From Candidatus Staskawiczbacteria bacterium (GTDB lineage Bacteria; Patescibacteriota; Minisyncoccia; Minisyncoccales; Staskawiczbacteraceae): 64,000 nucleotides of DNA. Below the pieces are notes generated by a model that was given only the letters and a program-made list of their open reading frames with translations, did no database searches and had not been told where the DNA came from. Within the stretch, counting starts at the first letter, position 1; each line of letters begins with the position of its first letter. Below, one piece after another: positions 5,611-56,076 of this stretch. The translations under genes were made by a program, and so were the position numbers. The stretch is from the NCBI GenBank assembly GCA_903831095.1, contig CAIKWD010000026.1, positions 29,290 to 93,289 of the forward strand, in the 5' to 3' direction.

Positions 5611-7600
5611 AGATTTAAATCATCTTTTAATAGTTGGCATTACCCCCTACTTTATAGACAAGCAGGGTGTTTGGTATAATGAAAACCTGCAAAAAATACT
5701 CGATGCCAGGCAGTCTCAACCGTTTTTTGAGGACAATGTCATATATTTGCAAAAAGACCACAGCTTTCAGTTTTCCCAGTTTTTAAGAAAGCTCGACGAA
5801 ATGGGTTACGAAAGAGTAGCTAAAGTTTCAGACCCTGGAGAATTTTCCCAGCGTGGCGGAATAGTAGATGTCTTCCCCATCAACATAAAAAATGCTATTA
5901 GATTGGATTTCTTGGGCAACGAAGTAGACGCCATAAAAGTTTTAGATACAAAAATAGAAAACGAGGAAAAGTCCAAAGAAGTTTTAAGAAAAAAATTAAA
6001 GTCGCAAAAACTTTTTTCAGAATTAAAAGGATTAAAAGCTGGAGATTACCTTGTTCACTTAGACCACGGAATAGCAAAATTTGCCGGCATAGAAGATTTC
6101 CAATTTTCTGTTTCCAAATTCCACGACAGCCCGGAAATGGAAGCTCCAAAAGTTGAAAACAAATATTATGTTTTAGAGTATGACAAAGGCGACAAGCTTT
6201 ATGTTCCAGTTGGATTGGAAAGAAAACTTTCAAGGTATGTTGGTTTTCAAGATCCTAAAGTTTCCAGACTTGGATCAGTTATTTGGCAAAATACCAAGCG
6301 CGCCATAAAAGAAGGAGTTGAAAAACTAGCCAAGGAACTTTTACAGCTTTACGCCCAAAAAGAGGTTGTAGAACGCACTCCATATATAGAAGACAGAGAA
6401 ATAGAAGCTCAACTGAGAGATAGTTTTGCCTATCAGGAAACTCCAGACCAAATGCAGGCTATAGAAGATATCAAACAGGATTTACAAAAAACAAAACCAA
6501 TGGACAGAATTATTTGTGGAGATGTTGGTTTTGGAAAAACAGAAGTAGCAATAAGAACAGCTTTATTGGCTTCCATAAATAATAGACAAACAGCTTTGAT
6601 CTGCCCGACTACAATTTTGGCCAACCAGCATTTTAATTCTTTTAAAAACAGGTTTAACAAGATTCCAATAAGAATTTCTTTGCTTTCAGGATTACAGACA
6701 AAAACCGAACAGAAAAAAATCCTCAACAATTTAAAGGAAGGGAAAATAGATATTTTAATTGGCACACACAGGCTCTTATCTAAAGATGTTGAGTATAAAA
6801 ACCTACAACTGCTTATAATAGATGACGAACAAAAATTTGGAGTAAAACAAAAAGAAAGATTAAGGCAGATAAAAACAAGCTTGGATGTTTTGAGCTTGTC
6901 AGCCACTCCTATACCACGCACAATTTATTTGGCTCTTTCTTCACTCAAAAATATTAGCTTGATGCAAACTCCACCTGTTGGCAGACAAGCCATAAAAACT
7001 GAAGTTTTAGAGTACAGTAATAAAAATATTAAGAAAATAATAAATACTGAGTTAGCCAGACACGGCCAAGTTTATTTCCTACACAATAGAGTCCAAACAA
7101 TAGAAACTAAAGCCGAGGAATTGAAAAAACTTTGTCCAAAAGCAAAACTGGGCGTAATCCATGGTCAAATGCCAGAAAAAAAATTAGTGCAGATAATGGA
7201 TGACTTTCAAAAAGAAAAAATAAATGTTTTATTGGCAACTACAATTATTGAAAACGGACTGGACCACGCAAACGTGAACACAATTATAATAGAAGACGCC
7301 ACCCGCCTTGGACTTTCACAAGCCCACCAAATAAGAGGCAGAGTTGGCAGATCTGGGACAAAGAGTTATGCATATTTTATGTACCAAGAAAAATCTATGA
7401 CACCTTTGGTACAGGAAAGACTAAAAGCTTTAGAAGATATTCAAGAATTGGGAGCAGGATACAGAATCGCCATTAGGGATTTGGAATTGCGTGGAGCTGG
7501 AAACATTTTAGGCAAAGAACAGTCAGGAGCCATAAACAAAATTGGTTTGAACTTGTACAGCCAGATGATCTCTGAAGCCATTGAAAAATTCAAGCAATAA
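5594..7600 (+). CDS. mfd: Transcription-repair coupling factor, compact 668-aa form
   Basis: GEFSQRGGIVDVFP...RLDFLGNEVD (UvrB-homology region), a CarD/RID-like segment, SF2 helicase motifs (GDVGFGKTEVA, LSATPIPRT, QIRGRVGRS) and the TRG motif (LRGAGNILGKEQSG). Confidence 0.8.
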   Translation: MNTTSEDLNHLLIVGITPYFIDKQGVWYNENLQKILDARQSQPFFEDNVIYLQKDHSFQFSQFLRKLDEMGYERVAKVSDPGEFSQRGGIVDVFPINIKNAIRLDFLGNEVDAIKVLDTKIENEEKSKEVLRKKLKSQKLFSELKGLKAGDYLVHLDHGIAKFAGIEDFQFSVSKFHDSPEMEAPKVENKYYVLEYDKGDKLYVPVGLERKLSRYVGFQDPKVSRLGSVIWQNTKRAIKEGVEKLAKELLQLYAQKEVVERTPYIEDREIEAQLRDSFAYQETPDQMQAIEDIKQDLQKTKPMDRIICGDVGFGKTEVAIRTALLASINNRQTALICPTTILANQHFNSFKNRFNKIPIRISLLSGLQTKTEQKKILNNLKEGKIDILIGTHRLLSKDVEYKNLQLLIIDDEQKFGVKQKERLRQIKTSLDVLSLSATPIPRTIYLALSSLKNISLMQTPPVGRQAIKTEVLEYSNKNIKKIINTELARHGQVYFLHNRVQTIETKAEELKKLCPKAKLGVIHGQMPEKKLVQIMDDFQKEKINVLLATTIIENGLDHANVNTIIIEDATRLGLSQAHQIRGRVGRSGTKSYAYFMYQEKSMTPLVQERLKALEDIQELGAGYRIAIRDLELRGAGNILGKEQSGAINKIGLNLYSQMISEAIEKFKQ

Positions 7601-18255: not shown

Positions 18256-20735
18256 TAAATTACTATGTTAATTAATTTGTTTGGTACGAAAACTATTTTT
18301 TTAACTTCAACTTCACCTATCAAAGCTTTTATTTTTTCAGACTTCATAACTATTTTTTCAGCTTCCTTTTGAGTCAGCCCAGCCTTTGCATTTATTTTAT
18401 CTCTAACTTTTCCATTTATCTGCACAATTAAAAGTACTTCTTGATCTTCAATTAATTTCTCGTCATATTTTGGCCACTTCTGCAAACTGCACATTTCCTT
18501 CAGTCCAGCGTTGGCCCAAAGTTCTTCAGCTAAATGCGGAGCAAAAGGAGAAAGAATAATTAAAAAGTTTGCCAAGTCCTTTTTATCCAAACCTGTGGCA
18601 GAAACTTGTCCCGCGGAGCGGGATCCCGTTACACGGGACCACTCATTTACAAATTCCATCATCGCACTTACAGAAGTATTAAATTTCATCAATTCAATAT
18701 CTTCTGCAACTTTCTTTACTGTCTTATGCAAAATCTTTTTCAATCCTTCTTCAGTTTTTACTGCAGCAGTTTTTTGCGATGCTAAATTATAAATCTTTTC
18801 CACAAATCTCCTGCATCCAACAACTCCTTTTGTATCCCAAGGAATCATTTGTTCAAATGGACCCATAAACATTTCATAAATTCTCAACGTGTCGGCTCCA
18901 TATTCTTTTACAATTACGTCTGGGTTAATAACATTCCCCTTAGACTTTGACATTTTAATTCCCCCTTCACCCAAAACCATTCCATGTGAGGTCCTCTTTT
19001 TATAGGGCTCAGATCCAATAGACAAAGGTACAGCTTTGATATCCCACAAAAATTTAAAAATAAATCTGGAATATAAAAGATGCAAAGTTGTATGTTCCAT
19101 TCCACCATTATACCAATCAACTGGAAGCCAATATTTGGCTAGAGATTCATCAACTAACTTTTTACTATTTTTAGGATCTATATATCTTAAAAAATACCAG
19201 TTAGAACCTGCCCAATTTGGCATAGTGTCGGTTTCCCTTTGAGCTGGACCTCCACATTTAGGACATTCTGTTTCTACCCAATTTTTAATCAAAGACAAAG
19301 GAGATTCTCCCGTATCTGTTGGCTTATATTTTTTTACATTGGGTAATTTAACCGGTAAATCTTTTTCAAAAACTGACTGCCATCCACACTTCTTACAAAA
19401 AATCATTGGTATTGGCTCACCCCAATAATGCTGTCTAGAAAAAACCCAATCTCTCAGTTTATAGCTTATTTTTGGTTGGGCAAATCCTTTTGAAGAAAGC
19501 CAAGCAATTATCAAGGGTCTCGCCTGAGCAGATTTCATACCGTCAAATTGAACAGAATTATAAAGAATTCCATCTCCTTCAAAACACTCCTCCAAATTCT
19601 TAACTTTCTGAGTAAGCAATTCATCGTCCGGTTTTATGGAAGTTCTTAATGGAATGCCATATTTCTTTGCCATTTTAAAATCTCTCTTGTCATGGGCATC
19701 AGCAAATACTGCTCCGGTTCCATATTGCTCTAAAACAAAGTCAGCAGTCCAAACAGGCATTTCCTCATTTGTTGCAGGATTCCTTACCAAAATACCCTTT
19801 AGCTGAACACCAGTTACATCTTTATCTTGATTGGTCCTATCCATATCAGAAACATTTTTAGCTTCCTCTCGATACTTTAAAACTTCATCAATGTTTTCAA
19901 TTCTGCTTTTATGAGTGTCTATAAAACTACTTCCAGGAGCTACAATTAAAAAAGTCCCAGAAAATATAGTATCTATTCTGGTTGTAAAAACATCTATAGA
20001 TTCTTCAACTCCTTCAATTGGAAACTTAACTAGGGCTCCATGAGATTCTCCAATCCAGTCCTTCTGCTGTGTTTTAATTTTTTCCAAATAATCTACATTT
20101 TCCAAATCTCTAATTAGCCTGTCAGCATAATTTGTAATTTTTATCATCCACTGCTCTTTTTCTCTTTTTTCAACTTTTGTCCCACATCTTTCGCAATTTC
20201 CATTTACCACTTCTTCGTTAGCCAAACCAATCAAACATGACGGACACCAATTTATATTAATTTTACTTTTATATGCCAACCCATTTTTAAACAACTGAAT
20301 AAAAATCCACTGAGTCCATTTATAATACTTTGGATCTGTAGTATCAATTTCTCTTGACCAGTCAAAAGACCACCCCATTCTCTGCATCTGTTCTTTAAAA
20401 TATTCAACATTCTTTTTTGTGACAACAGAAGGATGGACTCCTTTCTTAATTGCATAGTTTTCCGTAGGCAAACCAAAAGCATCCCAACCCATTGGATACA
20501 AAACATTAAACCCCTGCATTCTCTTCTTGCGAGCTATTATATCTAAGGCTGTATAACTCCTACAGTGTCCCACATGAAGCCCATCTCCAGAAGGGTATGG
20601 AAACTCCACCATGGCATAGAATTTCTTCTTCTTAGAGCCGTTTTTAGCCTTAAAAACGCTCGAATTAAACCACTTTTCCTGCCATTTTGCCTCTATTTTT
20701 TTAGGATTGTATTTTACCATATAGTTATCCTCCAT
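18255..20735 (-). CDS. leuS: Leucyl-tRNA synthetase
   Basis: 826 aa with the HIGH-like motif PYPSGDGLHVGH and KMSKS (KMSKSKGN). It contains the GC-rich palindromic element at 18608-18640. Confidence 0.9.
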   Translation of the reverse strand: MEDNYMVKYNPKKIEAKWQEKWFNSSVFKAKNGSKKKKFYAMVEFPYPSGDGLHVGHCRSYTALDIIARKKRMQGFNVLYPMGWDAFGLPTENYAIKKGVHPSVVTKKNVEYFKEQMQRMGWSFDWSREIDTTDPKYYKWTQWIFIQLFKNGLAYKSKININWCPSCLIGLANEEVVNGNCERCGTKVEKREKEQWMIKITNYADRLIRDLENVDYLEKIKTQQKDWIGESHGALVKFPIEGVEESIDVFTTRIDTIFSGTFLIVAPGSSFIDTHKSRIENIDEVLKYREEAKNVSDMDRTNQDKDVTGVQLKGILVRNPATNEEMPVWTADFVLEQYGTGAVFADAHDKRDFKMAKKYGIPLRTSIKPDDELLTQKVKNLEECFEGDGILYNSVQFDGMKSAQARPLIIAWLSSKGFAQPKISYKLRDWVFSRQHYWGEPIPMIFCKKCGWQSVFEKDLPVKLPNVKKYKPTDTGESPLSLIKNWVETECPKCGGPAQRETDTMPNWAGSNWYFLRYIDPKNSKKLVDESLAKYWLPVDWYNGGMEHTTLHLLYSRFIFKFLWDIKAVPLSIGSEPYKKRTSHGMVLGEGGIKMSKSKGNVINPDVIVKEYGADTLRIYEMFMGPFEQMIPWDTKGVVGCRRFVEKIYNLASQKTAAVKTEEGLKKILHKTVKKVAEDIELMKFNTSVSAMMEFVNEWSRVTGSRSAGQVSATGLDKKDLANFLIILSPFAPHLAEELWANAGLKEMCSLQKWPKYDEKLIEDQEVLLIVQINGKVRDKINAKAGLTQKEAEKIVMKSEKIKALIGEVEVKKIVFVPNKLINIVI
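18608..18640. repeat. GC-rich palindromic mini-element, family 1, copy A (in-frame in leuS)
   Basis: tgtcccgcggagcgggatcccgttacacgggac. The first 23 nt are identical to the copy at 37075-37108. It encodes SRVTGSRSAGQ. Confidence 0.8.
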
Positions 20736-36506: not shown

Positions 36507-37211
36507 CTAATTTATTACTGTTCCTATAAAAGGCTTATTATTTAAAAAGTCTTCCAGCCTTTCCAAGTTTTTACCATTGATCATAGCCACTTTCAATTTT
36601 AAACTGGCAGCTAGTTTGGAAGCCTTAGGATCAAACGGCATTGAAAGCCCAGGTGACCACTTGTCTCCAACAATTCTCAAAAAGCTTTTCCAATCAATTT
36701 CTTTAAATGGTTTGGCATCTGGAAATTCATTGGGATTTTTGTCGTATACATAATCAACATTTGTAAGATTGATTATAGTTTTTATATTATTATTCTTTGC
36801 CATTAAAACAGCATCATAATCTGTTGACCACCCTGGCTTCCACCCTGCCCCAACAATAATATCCTTAGTAGTTTTTACTTTTACATTTGGATCTGTGACA
36901 ACTTTTGGAAAACAATTTCCAGCAAACATTTGTTTTATAACTTCGGCATTCAACCTGGTAATGTTAATTCCCATCCAATCCCTATCTTGGCTTTTTGCGC
37001 CAAACTCCAAAAGCGCCTTTTGATAGTTTCTGGCAACTTTTCCTCCCCCAACTAAAATAAAAAACCTATATTTCTGTCCCGCGGAGCGGGATCCCGTATA
37101 GCGGGACAAAGAATATTTGAAAGTCTTTAAAAAACCTATGTCTATCTCATTTGGAGCCACTAACGACCCGCCCAGAGATATTATTATTGTTTCCTTTATG
37201 TTTTTAGCCAT
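36507..37211 (-). CDS. pyrH: Amino-acid kinase family protein, UMP kinase-like (archaeal-type PyrH)
   Basis: 234 aa with SLGGS and LVGGG motifs. It contains the GC-rich palindromic element at 37075-37108. Confidence 0.6.
   Translation of the reverse strand: MAKNIKETIIISLGGSLVAPNEIDIGFLKTFKYSLSRYTGSRSAGQKYRFFILVGGGKVARNYQKALLEFGAKSQDRDWMGINITRLNAEVIKQMFAGNCFPKVVTDPNVKVKTTKDIIVGAGWKPGWSTDYDAVLMAKNNNIKTIINLTNVDYVYDKNPNEFPDAKPFKEIDWKSFLRIVGDKWSPGLSMPFDPKASKLAASLKLKVAMINGKNLERLEDFLNNKPFIGTVIN
37075..37108. repeat. GC-rich palindromic mini-element, family 1, copy B (in-frame in the pyrH-like gene)
   Basis: tgtcccgcggagcgggatcccgtatagcgggaca. It contains a perfect 7-bp inverted repeat GTCCCGC/GCGGGAC flanking the palindrome CGGGATCCCG, and encodes SRYTGSRSAGQ. 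Confidence 0.8.
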
Positions 37212-38010: not shown

Positions 38011-38487
38011 ATGATAATAAAAGATATGAAGATATATTCGGAAAATAAAAAGGCTGGATTTAATTATGAAATATTAGAACGATTTGAGTCGGGGCTGGTT
38101 TTGTTTGGCCAAGAAGTAAAGTCTATAAGAACTGGGCATATAAATTTAGCTGGATCTTTTGTAACTTTAAAGCCACAAACTGGCGGAGGTTATCCAGAGC
38201 CATACTTGGTGGGAGTAAAAATACCTCCCTACCAGCCAAATAATGCTGGGGCAGACTACAATGAAGACCGCCCACGAAAGCTTCTTTTGAACAAAAAAGA
38301 GATAGTTTATCTTGCAGGAAAGTCAAAACAAGCGGGTTTTTCACTTATACCCTTGAAAATTTATGACAACAGTGGTAGAATAAAACTCGAATTCGGATTA
38401 GCTAAAGGAAAGAAGAAATACGACAAAAAAGAGAAAATAAAGAAGCGCGACGTAGAGCGCGAAGTTAATCGTGAATTATCGGCCTAA
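38011..38487 (+). CDS. smpB: SsrA-binding protein SmpB
   Basis: 158 aa; KKAGFNYEILERFESGLVLFGQEVKSIRTG is the SmpB signature. The true start may be the Met at 38026. Confidence 0.9.
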   Translation: MIIKDMKIYSENKKAGFNYEILERFESGLVLFGQEVKSIRTGHINLAGSFVTLKPQTGGGYPEPYLVGVKIPPYQPNNAGADYNEDRPRKLLLNKKEIVYLAGKSKQAGFSLIPLKIYDNSGRIKLEFGLAKGKKKYDKKEKIKKRDVEREVNRELSA

Positions 38488-38497
38488 TCGCCCACAT

Positions 38498-38852
38498 GGG
38501 GATGATTGTTTCGATGGATTGTTCTTTAAAGTAAGGCAAGTTGAGCTTTCTTGGGGCTCATTAATCTCCTGAGAAAAAACATAATTGCTAATTTATTTAA
38601 CTTTAATAAGCAACCAGCTTTAGCTTTTGCTTAAGCTGCATCCTTACCGATGATTCCTAATGGGCGGATCAAGGGTGTTATATTATTAGGATAGGCATCT
38701 TCATTCTCCGGGGAAATGCCAAAACTAAGGAGATAAAGCATTAAAAATTTTGCTAATTTTTTATTTAATGCTCGAAAAACAAAATCAGCTAAACTTGTAG
38801 AATTGCTTTTGAGAATTTTTCAGACGCGGTTTCAATACCGCCATCTCCACCA
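38498..38852 (+). ncRNA. ssrA: tmRNA (ssrA), about 355 nt
   Basis: 5' GGGGAUGAUUGUUUCGAUGG and 3' GACGCGGUUUCAAUACCGCCAUCUCCACCA (T-arm, acceptor, CCA). Acceptor pairing GGGGAUG/CAUCUCC. A candidate tag ORF reads ...GCU AAU UUA UUU AAC UUU AAU AAG CAA CCA GCU UUA GCU UUU GCU UAA (ANLFNFNKQPALAFA). It lies immediately downstream of smpB. Confidence 0.85.
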
Positions 38853-43897: not shown

Positions 43898-44509
43898 CTA
43901 ACTGACTTCGTACTTTATATTTTTTATTTTGTAGGTTATTTTTATTGGAGAAGAAACAACAACTGCGTCTCCGACCTTGTGCCCTAACAAAGCTTTGCCA
44001 ACAGGCGATTCATTGCTTATCTTTCCCAATGCTGGATTAGCTTCCAAGGTACCCATAATTACAAATTCATCTTTTTGCCCGTCTACAGATATTAAAACTT
44101 TAGCTCCAAGCCCAATAACACCTTTTTGATCTTTAGGTGGATTTTTAATAAGCTGATGACGGTCGATAATATTTTTTAATTCATCAATTCTAGACCTTAA
44201 AAAACCGACATCCTCCTGGAAACTTACAAATTCCGGATTCAAATCTTCAGATTCCAAAATTTTTGGGGCCTCTTGGTCCAAGGATTTCTTGTGCTCTAAA
44301 CTTACAAGATCTTCATACTCTTTTTTTATTTCCTTAAGTTTGCCCTTTGTTATGTAAAAAGTTTTTCCGTCCATTTTTATTACTTTAATTATATGGCTTT
44401 TCCATTTCTGTGGGTAATTAGAATAATATTCCTCTATGCCCAAAATGTCAATCCTTTTTTGAAAATATCTTAATTTTCCCATATACGCCGTCATATCCTG
44501 GTTCGACAA
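43898..44509 (-). CDS. greA: GreA/GreB family transcript cleavage factor-like protein (divergent N-terminus)
   Basis: The C-terminal 80 aa match the GreA FKBP-like domain (ISNESPVGKALLGHKVGDAVVV...). The start overlaps the upstream gene. Confidence 0.6.
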   Translation of the reverse strand: MSNQDMTAYMGKLRYFQKRIDILGIEEYYSNYPQKWKSHIIKVIKMDGKTFYITKGKLKEIKKEYEDLVSLEHKKSLDQEAPKILESEDLNPEFVSFQEDVGFLRSRIDELKNIIDRHQLIKNPPKDQKGVIGLGAKVLISVDGQKDEFVIMGTLEANPALGKISNESPVGKALLGHKVGDAVVVSSPIKITYKIKNIKYEVS

Positions 44510-45686
44510 AAACCTTGCCCTCCCTCATTTTTATCACTCCCTTGGCAATTTTTGACAAAGAATTTACTTTTATTTCCTCTTCTGTGGCCTCTAGAAGTAT
44601 TTTAATTTCCGAACCTAAATTATCTATTAATTTATTATAATATTTTAATACCTCCTTGGAAAGTGCAGAAACTCCTATTGATTCTGCAATTATCTCATTA
44701 AGTGGAATCAGACTCTTAAATGGAACTACATTTTTAGGAACAAACCCCTCTGGTCTATCGGCTAATTCTTCAACTCTGTTTAAAACTCCAATAACTAAGG
44801 GCTTTTTGCACTTTGGACAAATATTGTTGTATTTTTTTGACTGCTGAGGTTTCAAACTTAATTTACAAGATTTATGTCCATCATAATGATATTTGCCACC
44901 TTCAGGAAAAAATTCTATTGTACACAAAAATTTCTTATTATTTTTATTTTTTACAACATCCATGATACCTTTATAACTTAGTTCTGTATCAAAAACATTG
45001 GCTTCTCTACCAATTTTAGAAAGCGAATGGGCATCACTGTTTGAAACCAAATTAATTTTATCCAACTTTGACAGTCTCCAATTCATAGCCGGGTCAGAAC
45101 ATAATCCTGTTTCAATTGCATAAATATTTTTTGTCTGTTCCTCAAAGCATTCCTCCAAAGAATCAAACCCAGATTTTGACCCAAAAATAGCAAACCATGG
45201 CGTCCAAACGTGAGCTGGAATTATTAAGCAATTTTTATCTGCCTTTATAATAATCTTTACTAATTCTTTAGCGTCTAAACCTAAAATTGGCCGGCCATCT
45301 GCTTTTAGATTCCCTATCTGACCTAATCTTTTATTTATTTTTTCTACAGTATTTATAGAGGGTGCTAAAACAATAATATGAATCTTTCTAACTTTGCCTC
45401 CCCCGCCTTGACTCGACGAGGCAGGCTTAGAATAAATACAGCTTATTTCAGAACTTAAAACAAATCTAGTGCCAATATCAGATCCCTTCAGCTTAAAAAG
45501 GCCCCATTCTGCGGGGCGCAATTTACTTTTTATTTCCTTTAGCCATTTGGGGTGTGTAAAATCTCCAGTACCCAAAACATCAATTCCTTTTATTTTCGCC
45601 CACTTATCTAAATTAACCAAATTCATTAAGGGCGAAACTGCCCTGGAATATTTTGAGTGAATGTGAAAATCAGCTGTAAACTTCAT
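44448..45686 (-). CDS. endoQ: Endonuclease Q-like PHP-domain nuclease (COG1379)
   Basis: DFHIHSKYSRAVS, GTGD, PAHVWTPW, SNSDAHS, a CPKC zinc finger and a C-terminal GYDGVYGKIKIF line up with archaeal EndoQ motifs. Confidence 0.75.
   Translation of the reverse strand: MKFTADFHIHSKYSRAVSPLMNLVNLDKWAKIKGIDVLGTGDFTHPKWLKEIKSKLRPAEWGLFKLKGSDIGTRFVLSSEISCIYSKPASSSQGGGGKVRKIHIIVLAPSINTVEKINKRLGQIGNLKADGRPILGLDAKELVKIIIKADKNCLIIPAHVWTPWFAIFGSKSGFDSLEECFEEQTKNIYAIETGLCSDPAMNWRLSKLDKINLVSNSDAHSLSKIGREANVFDTELSYKGIMDVVKNKNNKKFLCTIEFFPEGGKYHYDGHKSCKLSLKPQQSKKYNNICPKCKKPLVIGVLNRVEELADRPEGFVPKNVVPFKSLIPLNEIIAESIGVSALSKEVLKYYNKLIDNLGSEIKILLEATEEEIKVNSLSKIAKGVIKMREGKVFVEPGYDGVYGKIKIFSKKD
45397..45428. repeat. 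Possible third GC-rich in-frame insert (encodes PASSSQGGGG in the EndoQ-like gene)
   Basis: gcctcccccgccttgactcgacgaggcaggc is a roughly 30-nt GC island. It corresponds to an insertion relative to archaeal EndoQ between the conserved C and the HHLLIFP block. Confidence 0.35.
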
Positions 45687-48804: not shown

Positions 48805-48836
48805 AAAATCCCGCAGTGGGCGGGATCTTTTAATTT
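48805..48836 (-). terminator. Intrinsic terminator ATCCCGC-AGTG-GGCGGGAT with T-run, downstream of the NIF3 gene
   Basis: A 7-8-bp GC stem followed by a T-run on the minus strand. Confidence 0.65.
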
Positions 48837-54087: not shown

Positions 54088-56076
54088 TTGTATATGCAAT
54101 TTGAAGTAAAATCAAAGTTCAAGCCAAAGGGCGACCAGCCTCAGGCAATAAAAAAATTGACTGAGAACTTAAAAGCCGGGGTTAAAGACCAGGTGCTTTT
54201 GGGCGTTACTGGGTCTGGAAAGACTTTTACAATGGCTAAAGTCATAGAAAAAATACAAAAACCCACTTTGGTCATTTCCCCCAACAAAACTTTAGCTGCC
54301 CAGCTTTACCAGGAATTCAAAGAATTTTTCCCAAACAATGCTGTGCACTATTTTGTCTCATATTACGACTACTATCAGCCTGAAGCCTATATTCCCCAGT
54401 CAGACACATATATAGAGAAAGATGCAAAAATAAACGAAGAAATAGACAGGCTAAGGCATGCGGCAGTCCAAGATGTGACTATGAGAAAAGATGTAATTGT
54501 TGTAGCTTCGGTTTCCTGCATTTACAACATTGGCTCACCAGAAAACTATGAAAATGTTTCGCTAGAAATAACAAAAAACCAAAAAATAAAAAGAAAAGAT
54601 TTTTTAATTCTGTTAAACAATTTGCAGTACCAAAGAAATGATATTGATTTTAAACCTGGCATGTTTCGCGTGCGCGGAGACATTGTAGAAATATATATTG
54701 TAACAGGCGAAAAAATAATTCGCGTGGAATTTTTTGGAGATACCATAGACAAAATTTCAGAAACTTTGCCAGGATTTGGACAAAAGTATAAAAGTTCTGG
54801 AGACAAGCTCAGACTCTTCCCCGCTCACTTTTGGGTGACACCTCAAGACAAAGTTAACATTGCCATAAACAATATAAAGCTGGAATTAGAACAAAGATTA
54901 AAAGAATTAAAAAAACAAAATAAATTAGTTGAAGCTCAAAGGCTTGAGCAAAAAACAAATTACGATTTAGAAATGCTTAAGGAAACTGGCTGGTGCAACG
55001 GCATAGAAAACTATTCCAGCCATATGGAATTTAGAAAACCAGGCCAGGCCCCATTTTCCCTGGTTGATTATTTTGATTATTTTAACCCTTCGACGGGCTC
55101 AGAGCAGGCCCAGGGCGGTTCTTTAATGTTTATAGACGAGTCGCATATTTCTATTTCCCAAATTAGGGCCATGGCAATACAAGACAAAATAAGAAAAGGC
55201 ACTTTAATAGACTTTGGATTCCGCCTGCCTTCAGCCATAGATAACCGGCCCTTAACTTTTGCTGAGTTTGAAAAGCGCCAAAAGCAAACAATTTATGTTT
55301 CTGCTACGCCAGCTACTTTTGAAAAACAAAAAGCTGGCAAAAATATTATTGAGCAAATTATTAGACCTACAGGATTATTAGAACCAGTTATTGAAATTAA
55401 AAAAACTGACAACCAAATAAAAGACTTAATAGAAGAAATAAAAAAACAGGTTGAGAAAAAACACAGGACTTTGGTTGTGACAATTACAAAAAGACTAGCT
55501 GAAGAAATAACCAATTATCTTGTTGACCGGGGCATTAAAACCCAATATCTACACTCGGAAGTAAAAACCATGGAACGACCTAAAATACTAAAGGAATTTC
55601 GTGAGGGCAAATATGACGTTTTAGTGGGCATAAACCTTTTAAGAGAAGGCTTAGATTTGCCAGAGGTTTCTTTAGTTGCAATTTTAGATGCCGACAAGGA
55701 GGGTTTTTTAAGAAACGAAACAACCTTAATTCAAACAATGGGCCGAGCTGCCCGTCATCAAAATGGCAGGATAATTTTGTATGCAGACAAAACAACCATG
55801 TCTATGGAGTCTGCAATTAACGAAATAAATAGAAGAAGAAAAATACAACAGGCATACAACAAAAAACACAACATAACTCCCAAAACAATTATTTCTGGCA
55901 TACGCGAATGGGGATTTTCCAAAAAAGAAGACATTGATTCGGAATTCTGGATGATTCAAGACAAAGAAACTCTAGAGAAAGAAATGAAAATAGCTGCCAA
56001 AAATTTAGACTTTGAGCGGGCAGCGGAAATTCGCGATTTGATTAAAAAATTAGAGACAACAAAAAAGCCCGTTTAA
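54088..56076 (+). CDS. uvrB: Excinuclease ABC subunit B
   Basis: 662 aa with a Walker A (GVTGSGKTFTMA), the beta-hairpin region, helicase motifs and a C-terminal UvrC-binding domain (FERAAEIRDLIKKLE). Confidence 0.9.
   Translation: MYMQFEVKSKFKPKGDQPQAIKKLTENLKAGVKDQVLLGVTGSGKTFTMAKVIEKIQKPTLVISPNKTLAAQLYQEFKEFFPNNAVHYFVSYYDYYQPEAYIPQSDTYIEKDAKINEEIDRLRHAAVQDVTMRKDVIVVASVSCIYNIGSPENYENVSLEITKNQKIKRKDFLILLNNLQYQRNDIDFKPGMFRVRGDIVEIYIVTGEKIIRVEFFGDTIDKISETLPGFGQKYKSSGDKLRLFPAHFWVTPQDKVNIAINNIKLELEQRLKELKKQNKLVEAQRLEQKTNYDLEMLKETGWCNGIENYSSHMEFRKPGQAPFSLVDYFDYFNPSTGSEQAQGGSLMFIDESHISISQIRAMAIQDKIRKGTLIDFGFRLPSAIDNRPLTFAEFEKRQKQTIYVSATPATFEKQKAGKNIIEQIIRPTGLLEPVIEIKKTDNQIKDLIEEIKKQVEKKHRTLVVTITKRLAEEITNYLVDRGIKTQYLHSEVKTMERPKILKEFREGKYDVLVGINLLREGLDLPEVSLVAILDADKEGFLRNETTLIQTMGRAARHQNGRIILYADKTTMSMESAINEINRRRKIQQAYNKKHNITPKTIISGIREWGFSKKEDIDSEFWMIQDKETLEKEMKIAAKNLDFERAAEIRDLIKKLETTKKPV

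Follow-up and report, generated by a model that had tools for sequence, protein, structure and literature searches.

A 30-nucleotide double hairpin in the UMP kinase gene of a Staskawiczbacteria genome: a probable very small selfish repeat of Patescibacteria

What is a GC-rich palindrome doing in frame inside the gene for an archaeal-type UMP kinase (pyrH) of a Candidatus Staskawiczbacteria bacterium, and does it belong to a family of repeats? The question arises from a stretch of contig CAIKWD010000026.1 (GenBank assembly GCA_903831095.1, positions 29,290 to 93,289 of the forward strand; 64,000 nucleotides, hereafter the window), in which the 34-mer tgtcccgcggagcgggatcccgtatagcgggaca occupies positions 37075–37108. 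According to our analysis, this segment is probably (we would put it at about 0.6) a very small selfish repeat, a mobile or converting mini-palindrome, which is carried by its host gene as a translated passenger loop. Below, individual loci and orthologues that were compared with the window copy are designated by numbers with the prefix L (e.g., L026, L080).

The original prediction had placed the 34-mer in frame in a kinase gene and had read it as SRYTGSRSAGQ between the motifs SLGGS and LVGGG. Both statements were borne out. The minus-strand open reading frame (ORF) 36507–37211 matches NCBIfam TIGR02076 (1e-55) and Pfam AA_kinase (9e-22), the best PDB relatives of its product are the UMP kinases of Pyrococcus and Sulfolobus, the UMP kinase entries 2JI5/2BRI match at 6e-26, and the predicted peptide over the insert region is ...YSLSRYTGSRSAGQKY..., with SRYTGSRSAGQ standing between the two motifs. 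In the DNA, GTCCCGC (37076–37082) is complementary to GCGGGAC (37101–37107), and the 10-nt palindrome CGGGATCCCG lies between them at 37087–37096. The GC content of the element is 70%, compared with 34% for the window, and the 34-mer was found in 0 of 100 dinucleotide shuffles.

The pyrH site was surveyed in 120 UMP kinase orthologues (73–83% identical), with DNA from 49 orthologous metagenome loci and from targeted look-ups. The loop is empty (SLQKYLGxKRFF, with nothing added) in about 94 of the 120, whereas 11 have the element or its variants (type A), and in 15 the loop is occupied by GC-rich inserts of other kinds (type B). Empty sites read TCT TTG CAA AAA TAT TTA GGN NNN AAG MGN TTT, and the filled site reads TCT TTG (TCCCGCTATACGGGATCCCGCTCCGCGGGA) CAG AAA TAT AGG TTT. 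This comparison assigns the insert to 37077–37106, codons 36–45, and shows its length to be exactly 30 nt, between Leu-TTG and Gln-CAG (CAA in the empty orthologues). All of the 34 nt first attributed to the element are present, but only these 30 are inserted DNA, and the outer TG/CA of the proposed stem are parts of the codons TTG and CAG of the host gene. The features of the site are as follows.

36507..37211, minus strand: host gene, archaeal-type UMP kinase (pyrH), 234 aa (TIGR02076, 1e-55)
37077..37106, minus strand: the element, a 30-nt GC-rich double hairpin, codons 36–45 (SRYTGSRSAG) of UMP kinase, delimited by filled and empty orthologous sites
37092..37106, minus strand: hairpin 1, locus-specific; coding strand TCCCGC TAT ACGGGA, with a T.G closing pair on the opposite strand
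37077..37091, minus strand: hairpin 2, core of the family; TCCCGC TCC GCGGGA on the coding strand, meeting hairpin 1 at GGATCC
37107..37109, minus strand: host codon Leu35 (TTG), bordering the insertion point TTG^CAR on the left; TCT TTG CAA AAA TAT in empty orthologues
37074..37076, minus strand: host codon Gln46 (CAG), right edge of the insertion point, from filled and empty sites

The unit consists of two adjoining 15-nt stem-loops, TCCCGC-NNN-GCGGGA each, which meet at GGATCC. The 7-bp pairing that had been proposed around the 10-nt palindrome exists, but the conserved fold is these two 15-nt hairpins and not one outer stem. Across 13 distinct 30-nt copies, the two-hairpin model has 96.8% of positions paired with four doubly changed pairs, which 0 of 500 shuffles reached; a single long hairpin fits worse (81% paired versus 97%) and was rejected. 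Both strands fold as two hairpins, with −16 to −17 kcal/mol for the 30-mer as RNA and −11.5 to −12.1 kcal/mol as single-stranded DNA (z ~ −3.3 to −4.0 relative to shuffles for the latter), and the window contains four TC-stem-GA modules versus 0.16 in shuffles. The element has terminal inverted repeats: one 15-nt half is the inverse of the other, with a perfect match in L012, L014, L022 and L025.

Among independent copies, changes affect 22 of 48 loop positions and 6 of 112 stem positions (Fisher P = 5e-9), and all six stem changes fall at the loop-closing pair, the states of which are C-G, T.G, T-A and A-T. The pyrH orthologues L026, L077, L078, L079 and L082 all retain hairpin 1 as TCCCGC-TAY-ACGGGA, and the copy of L077 has one G.U pair. 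In L080 (TCTCGC TAT GCGAGA followed by TCTGGC GAA GCCAGA), all stem changes relative to the window copy are compensated. Stems that are different or longer, with the pairing retained, occur in L078, L081 and L084: L078 and L082 have TCCTCGAC GAA GTCGGGA and TCCTCGGC AAA GCCGGGA, hairpin 1 is enlarged to 10 bp in L081 and L084, and hairpin 2 of L084 has 9 bp. The copies of L083 and L085 are decaying. The encoded peptide is not conserved across the pyrH copies (SRYTGSRSAG, SRYARSGEAR, SRLLEGNRGSSTKSG and others). Between the window and L026, the elements are identical at 29 of 30 positions, the genes at 72% and their third positions at 47%. Orthologous copies keep both hairpins by compensatory changes while the peptide drifts.

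The window contains a second copy, in leuS.

18609..18638, minus strand: second copy of the element, leuS codons 700–709 (SRVTGSRSAG), an exact 30-nt insertion relative to orthologues reading NAW^QVS

As had been predicted, this copy has the same phase and orientation as that of pyrH. The two share 23 identical bases (18607–18640 in leuS), and the leuS reading, SRVTGSRSAGQ, gives both window copies the common form SR[Y/V]TGSRSAGQ. A duplicated gene segment as the source of this identity is excluded, as the flanks and the host genes of the two copies are unrelated. Orthologues of leuS read ...MEFVNAW^QVSKDGLDKKDL and the window reads W[SRVTGSRSAG]Q, an exact 30-nt insertion at TGG^CAA; the case is cleaner than that at pyrH. 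The two targets, TTG^CAA in pyrH and TGG^CAA in leuS, are alike. In E. coli LeuRS, the position of the leuS insert corresponds to the loop 756–766, after the helix FNTAIAAIMELMNKL.

At the leuS site the relatives have ...GSSTKSGQ, ...GSSAKSGQ and SRYAGSREAR, the last encoded in L086 by TCCCGC TAC GCGGGA followed by TCTCGC GAA GCGAGA. Some hairpin-2 variants (the SSTKSG type; TCTCGC/GCGAGA) are common to the pyrH and leuS sites of the relatives. The same derived 15–18-nt hairpin at two loci 18 kb apart is impossible by point mutation, from which we infer that the copies have probably been homogenised or replaced by a currently active variant. The variants form a series at the identical point of leuS, some of them locally frame-shifted (SRLSGIPPEAGH...). 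In the leuS orthologue of L086, a TGA lies at about 160–170 within the conserved motif YGADTL(R)IYEMFMGP, and the gene is called from a downstream start; the contig has low coverage, and the TGA could be a sequencing error, a mark of a pseudogene or recoding.

The assumption of a multi-copy palindromic family, first made from two copies, was supported by a search of 185,579 species genomes. The 21-nt core GTCCCGCGGAGCGGGATCCCG was found at 25 loci, versus about one expected by chance (our rough estimate from collection size and motif length), and hairpin 2 of the pyrH copy has the same sequence in the leuS copy and at these 25 loci. By record titles, most of the genomes are of Patescibacteria, namely Saccharibacteria, Kerfeldbacteria, Shapirobacteria, Doudnabacteria and unclassified members; a few metagenome-assembled genomes with the 21-mer are labelled Gammaproteobacteria, Kryptoniota or Syntrophorhabdaceae, labels that are unverified. 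The double-hairpin form is present at all 25 core loci except L006 (a copy at a contig end) and L018 (a truncated copy), and the loop of the second hairpin is variable (GGA, GAA, AAA, GAT and others) or long (20–27 nt). About 15 of the 25 core copies lie within long ORFs of unrelated conserved genes, the rest including intergenic DNA. The hosts include an FAD-linked oxidase, CcmF, a GH2 protein, two class-I aminoacyl-tRNA synthetases (valS among the hosts), UvrB, a CofD-like protein, Pol X and GluRS; translation added DnaJ, as well as enolase and two other genes in which the copy directly follows the ATG.

Other identities of such a repeat were considered. The palindrome CGGGATCCCG has the same letters as a commercial BamHI linker, and the 12-mer GCGGGATCCCGC was found in the literature in unrelated primer contexts only; an artefact is excluded by the in-frame orthologous variation across independent assemblies. 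An uptake signal sequence was rejected, given that the copies are much too sparse and represent insertions, not point-mutation motifs, as were a CRISPR repeat (no array) and an intrinsic terminator (no T-run after either hairpin in pyrH or leuS). Viral contigs gave 0 matches to a degenerate 30-mer pattern, a phage search gave none, and a plasmid search gave chance partial matches only. Rfam 15 had no match at the element, the only matches in the window, L002, L024 and L017 being transfer-messenger RNA (tmRNA) and tRNAs. Literature searches found no description of such elements in the Candidate Phyla Radiation (CPR)/Patescibacteria.

The frame used has no stop and the length is divisible by 3; the element is therefore probably transcribed and translated together with its host gene, giving a Ser/Arg/Gly/Ala loop of 10 residues at a surface link. 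None of the frames of the perfect palindrome contains a stop. Lengths are 30, 48 or 51 nt for intragenic copies, all multiples of 3, and 32, 50, 50, 53 and 55 nt for intergenic ones. The phase is TCC|CGC in 13 of 16 intragenic copies (P = 1e-4), giving S-R-G-A-G-S-R-S-A-G and not the proline-rich alternatives; without production of the peptide, such a bias would not be expected. The loop position between the kinase motifs, also claimed in the original prediction, agrees with an AlphaFold2 model of the window UMP kinase (predicted local distance difference test, pLDDT, 83.9), which has a helix at 25–39, coil at 40–47 and a strand at 48–54. In the model, insert residues 36–45 extend helix A and connect it to strand 2, in a part of lower local confidence, and this position coincides with the gap in the alignment to the Pyrococcus UMP kinase.

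Some copies bear marks of insertion. Flanking 7-nt direct repeats that match at 6 or more of 7 positions accompany 7 of 26 copies, versus 0.25% of control positions; they are found in L013 (7/7, CAAGTTA), L020, L015 and L016, and at three copies from one genome. Some flanks are heptad-repetitive, e.g., that of L016. The signal is real, and either a staggered cut or microhomology-mediated copying could be its source. In the GluRS gene of L016 (about 7470–7560), the element lies in coding sequence inside a run of 7-nt tandem repeats (CAAAAYT, five times), which may be footprints of repeated insertion or of slippage.

Among known systems, the closest are the Rickettsia palindromic elements (RPEs), reportedly described by Ogata et al. 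in 2000 and by Claverie and Ogata in 2003. Like RPEs, the element is a palindromic repeat in the small AT-rich genome of a host-dependent bacterium, occurs in frame in conserved protein genes and also in non-coding DNA, is presumably translated as surface segments, and has no known transposase. RPEs, in contrast, are about 100–150 bp long (RPE-1 to RPE-8 consensus) and belong to Rickettsia, and the 30-nt element of Patescibacteria is set apart by length and lineage and is presumably unrelated in sequence. Repetitive extragenic palindromes (REPs) and their doublets (REPINs) are also hairpin repeats of 20–40 nt, often in doublets. REPs are extragenic by definition, reach tens to hundreds of copies per genome, have a GTAG head and flank a gene for the REP-associated Y1 tyrosine transposase (RAYT); here, about 15 of the 25 loci and both window copies are in long ORFs, and the RAYT-like genes are not flanked by the element. 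Miniature inverted-repeat transposable elements (e.g., the Correia elements of Neisseria) are likewise non-autonomous with terminal inverted repeats, a likeness that extends to the subset of copies with 7-nt flanking direct repeats, but our element has no internal region (two 15-nt arms only), its window copies lack target duplications, and no parent insertion sequence (IS) is known.

RPEs reportedly lose their repeat identity over time (PMC6649704), unlike the stems described here, which are kept by compensatory change. The GC42 clusters of yeast mitochondria are GC-rich palindromes of about 40 nt in very AT-rich DNA, with constrained stems and free loops (Wu and Hao, 2015; PMC4478555); their subunits merge and shuffle, some copies have putative target duplications, transfer between species occurs, and the mobilisation mechanism is unknown (PMC4478555). 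The likeness to the element (a GC-rich palindrome in AT-rich DNA, constrained stems, variable loops) is a functional analogy without a claim of homology, since the GC clusters are organellar, mostly intergenic and unrelated in sequence, whereas the element is mostly inside essential genes and in one preferred phase. In the mitochondria of Nematomorpha, inverted repeats are also kept paired inside coding sequence; they are actively kept perfect, and arm-to-arm template switching has been proposed (PMC6649704). These palindromes differ from the element in their length (up to 284 bp) and in being gene sequence duplicated locally, not a dispersed repeat with shared sequence. By comparison, the element appears to behave like the RPEs and the yeast GC clusters, yet it departs from what defines the RPEs (length, lineage) and the REP/RAYT system (extragenic location, RAYT flanking).

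The reading that we prefer would run as follows. Two GC-rich 15-nt modules, TCC-stem-loop-stem-GGA, joined at GGATCC, would be spread or copied among sites in Patescibacteria genomes, and the insertions would survive only where a loop is harmless, namely in loops, at termini and in intergenic DNA. After insertion, each hairpin would stay self-complementary while the loops and the encoded peptide drift, through arm-to-arm templated correction in a DNA hairpin or cruciform or through selection for elements that remain copyable. Copies at different loci would also exchange hairpin modules, giving concerted evolution.

Several findings weigh against this reading. The copy number is low, with two copies in the 64-kb window and 1–3 exact-core matches per genome elsewhere, and a structure under selection, in RNA or in DNA, would show compensatory change as well. 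Neither window copy has a target duplication (7-nt flank matches of 0/7 and 3/7). Filled pyrH alleles also lack the four codons LGxK of the empty sites, and their history therefore comprises more than one clean step; type-A alleles are not monophyletic in a neighbour-joining tree of the 120 orthologues, but the tree is star-like, poorly resolved and uninformative, so that one old insertion, repeated insertion and allele transfer are indistinguishable. Moreover, our analysis identified no mobilising gene. An RAYT-like Y1 transposase gene (L081 45–770; 241 aa, Pfam Y1_Tnp 4e-7, below the NCBIfam cut-off) often adjoins pyrH in Staskawiczbacteria (L081, L062, L043, L038, L044, L046), and another lies 1.4 kb from the copy in L018, but such genes are flanked by an AT-rich palindrome of their own, TAGATAGACATC.GATGTCTATCTA (L038 146–170 and 942–966; L062 1454–1480), and not by the element. 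The 64-kb window has neither an RAYT-like homologue nor the TAGATAGACATC palindrome. No IS with the ends of the element turned up among the 25 loci, in which no systematic search for a parent IS was made.

The main rival explanation, unlikely in our judgement, is that the hairpins are a selected functional structure, either in mRNA (a pause, cleavage or protein-binding site tuning housekeeping expression) or in DNA (a cruciform or hairpin serving replication or the nucleoid), with the peptide as a by-product. Such a structure would account for compensatory substitutions that keep both stems over about 25% protein divergence of the orthologues, for the conservation of synonymous positions within the element between the window and L026, for conserved stems with free loops, and for the over-representation of aminoacyl-tRNA synthetase genes and tRNA neighbourhoods among the hosts. 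It accords poorly with the location of the copies at N-termini, mid-gene, at C-termini, in 5' regions and in intergenic DNA, in both orientations, as well as with the dispensability of the element in most orthologues of each host gene and the decay of some orthologous copies (L083, L085). The G.U or C.A states favour neither strand consistently, no Rfam family matches, and a sequence-specific binding site is contradicted by stem sequences that are not conserved. Movement in trans by an RAYT or an IS200/IS605-like enzyme that recognises single-stranded DNA hairpins, as for a REP/REPIN-type element, is quite improbable: the size and hairpin-doublet design recall REP doublets and RAYT-like genes occur beside pyrH and near the copy of L018, but these genes have their different palindrome and stand beside empty pyrH sites, the window has no homologue, and the element has no GTAG head and lies mainly within genes. 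Y1 transposition (IS200/IS605) is not expected to leave flanking direct repeats, and the 7-nt repeats found here speak against it. The RAYT-like genes suggest a separate REP/RAYT-like system in the CPR.

A local origin, in which template switching during replication of quasi-palindromes would have produced the palindrome of each site separately and nothing moves, is very improbable. The empty pyrH site is indeed a quasi-palindrome centred on the insertion point (ATATTCTTTG^CAAAAATAT), and stems seem to grow symmetrically (TCGAC AAA GTCG in L081, TCGACGGC TTC GCCGTCG in L084); identical stretches of 21–30 nt in unrelated genes, at 25 loci and at two window sites, make an independent origin impossible, and local templating may explain the upkeep of the hairpins but not their origin. 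Bypass (byp) elements are features of Magnusiomyces mitochondria. Excision of the segment from the message, as a mini-intron, or its skipping by ribosomes, as a translational bypass, either of which would leave a protein without the 10 residues, is scarcely credible, although the local RNA structure is strong (−16 to −22 kcal/mol) and bypass elements derived from GC clusters exist in yeast mitochondria (cited in PMC4478555). All intragenic copies are in frame, with lengths that are multiples of 3 and one preferred codon phase, leuS variants with local frame changes regain the frame, and neither a take-off/landing codon pair nor splice-like conserved ends were seen.

A number of further observations concern the pyrH region and other parts of the family. 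The helix A–strand 2 loop of the UMP kinase is an insertion hot spot: L030, L037, L039, L040–L042 and L056 have at least three other kinds of GC-rich insert there, among them AACCCTTCGACTGGGCTCAGGGC and GACCCCACTTCGCCAAGGCTTCGCGGGG, the GACCCCACTTCGCCAAGGCTTCGCGGGG form in L040–L042 having a further hairpin nested inside. The immediate upstream neighbours of pyrH in two type-A genomes (L077, L082) are genes for a DDE_Tnp_1 transposase and an RVT_1 reverse transcriptase, and this region seems prone to mobile-gene insertion. In the window, a tmRNA gene (Rfam RF00023, 110 bits; 38498–38852) directly follows smpB (38011–38487), two genes from pyrH. At 55084–55124, within a UvrB-like ORF (54088–56076), a different GC-rich in-frame segment, AACCCTTCGACGGGCTCAGAGCAGGCCCAGGGCGG (NPSTGSEQAQGGSL), precedes the DESH motif and resembles the type B inserts of pyrH (NPSTGLRA and similar); a GC-rich island at 45392–45430 (ORF 44448–45686), coding for SKPASSSQGGGGKV, may be an in-frame insert of another family. 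An intergenic hairpin shares the stem of the element.

48808..48826, plus strand: intergenic single hairpin ATCCCGC AGTGG GCGGGAT, with A6 and T-run flanks; scores as an intrinsic terminator

This hairpin may be a single module reused as a terminator, or may be the source of the stem. A diverged member is present in the N-terminal domain of argS in L055 (733–766; GTCCCGC CACA GCGGGA TCCCGCC CTG GCGGA, read as GPATAGSRPGG), and the argS of the window is without a copy. Several copies are associated with tRNA genes. In L002 (6557–6660) and L024 (290–392), a tRNA 3'-fragment (anticodon stem, T arm and acceptor strand) directly follows a complete tRNA-Glu and contains a long-loop copy in the anticodon loop, at TTTT^CAA, enclosed by a stem that covaries between the two Kerfeldbacteria (TCGGC/GCCGG in one, TCAGC/GCTGA in the other). 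In L017 (4633–4720), the element forms the end of a duplicated tRNA-Ser 5' half, after which come a GIY-YIG gene and then the intact tRNA-Ser; the arrangement resembles a small cassette that has been inserted at the anticodon loop of a tRNA. The copy of L020 is 75 nt upstream of a tRNA-Glu.

The selfish-repeat reading can be carried further, to a proposal that is tentative and that we regard as possible but doubtful. The 15-nt TCC-stem-loop-stem-GGA hairpin would be a self-maintaining module without a dedicated transposase. Structure-dependent templated repair or replication switching at TKG^CAA-like sites would copy it from locus to locus and also across distant lineages, arm-to-arm conversion would keep it paired, and Patescibacteria would possibly use it, e.g., as DNA or RNA structural punctuation in essential genes. 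If so, we would be dealing with ultra-small mobile coding elements of a new class, which would steadily supply the proteins of ultrasmall bacteria with new surface loops, and a mobilising process that proved host-encoded or enzyme-free would be new biology.

The genomes of Patescibacteria are tiny and streamlined, yet pyrH, leuS, argS, valS, gltX, eno, dnaJ and uvrB carry a GC-rich hairpin repeat that is presumably translated. We know of no smaller protein-coding palindromic repeat. The element would be a bacterial counterpart of the mitochondrial GC clusters, and it offers a clear case of hairpin upkeep by compensatory change inside coding DNA. The pyrH loop, struck by several kinds of GC-rich insert, calls for caution in the annotation, alignment and phylogeny of CPR proteins, and the family as a whole may serve as a natural experiment on how proteins tolerate and gain loops.

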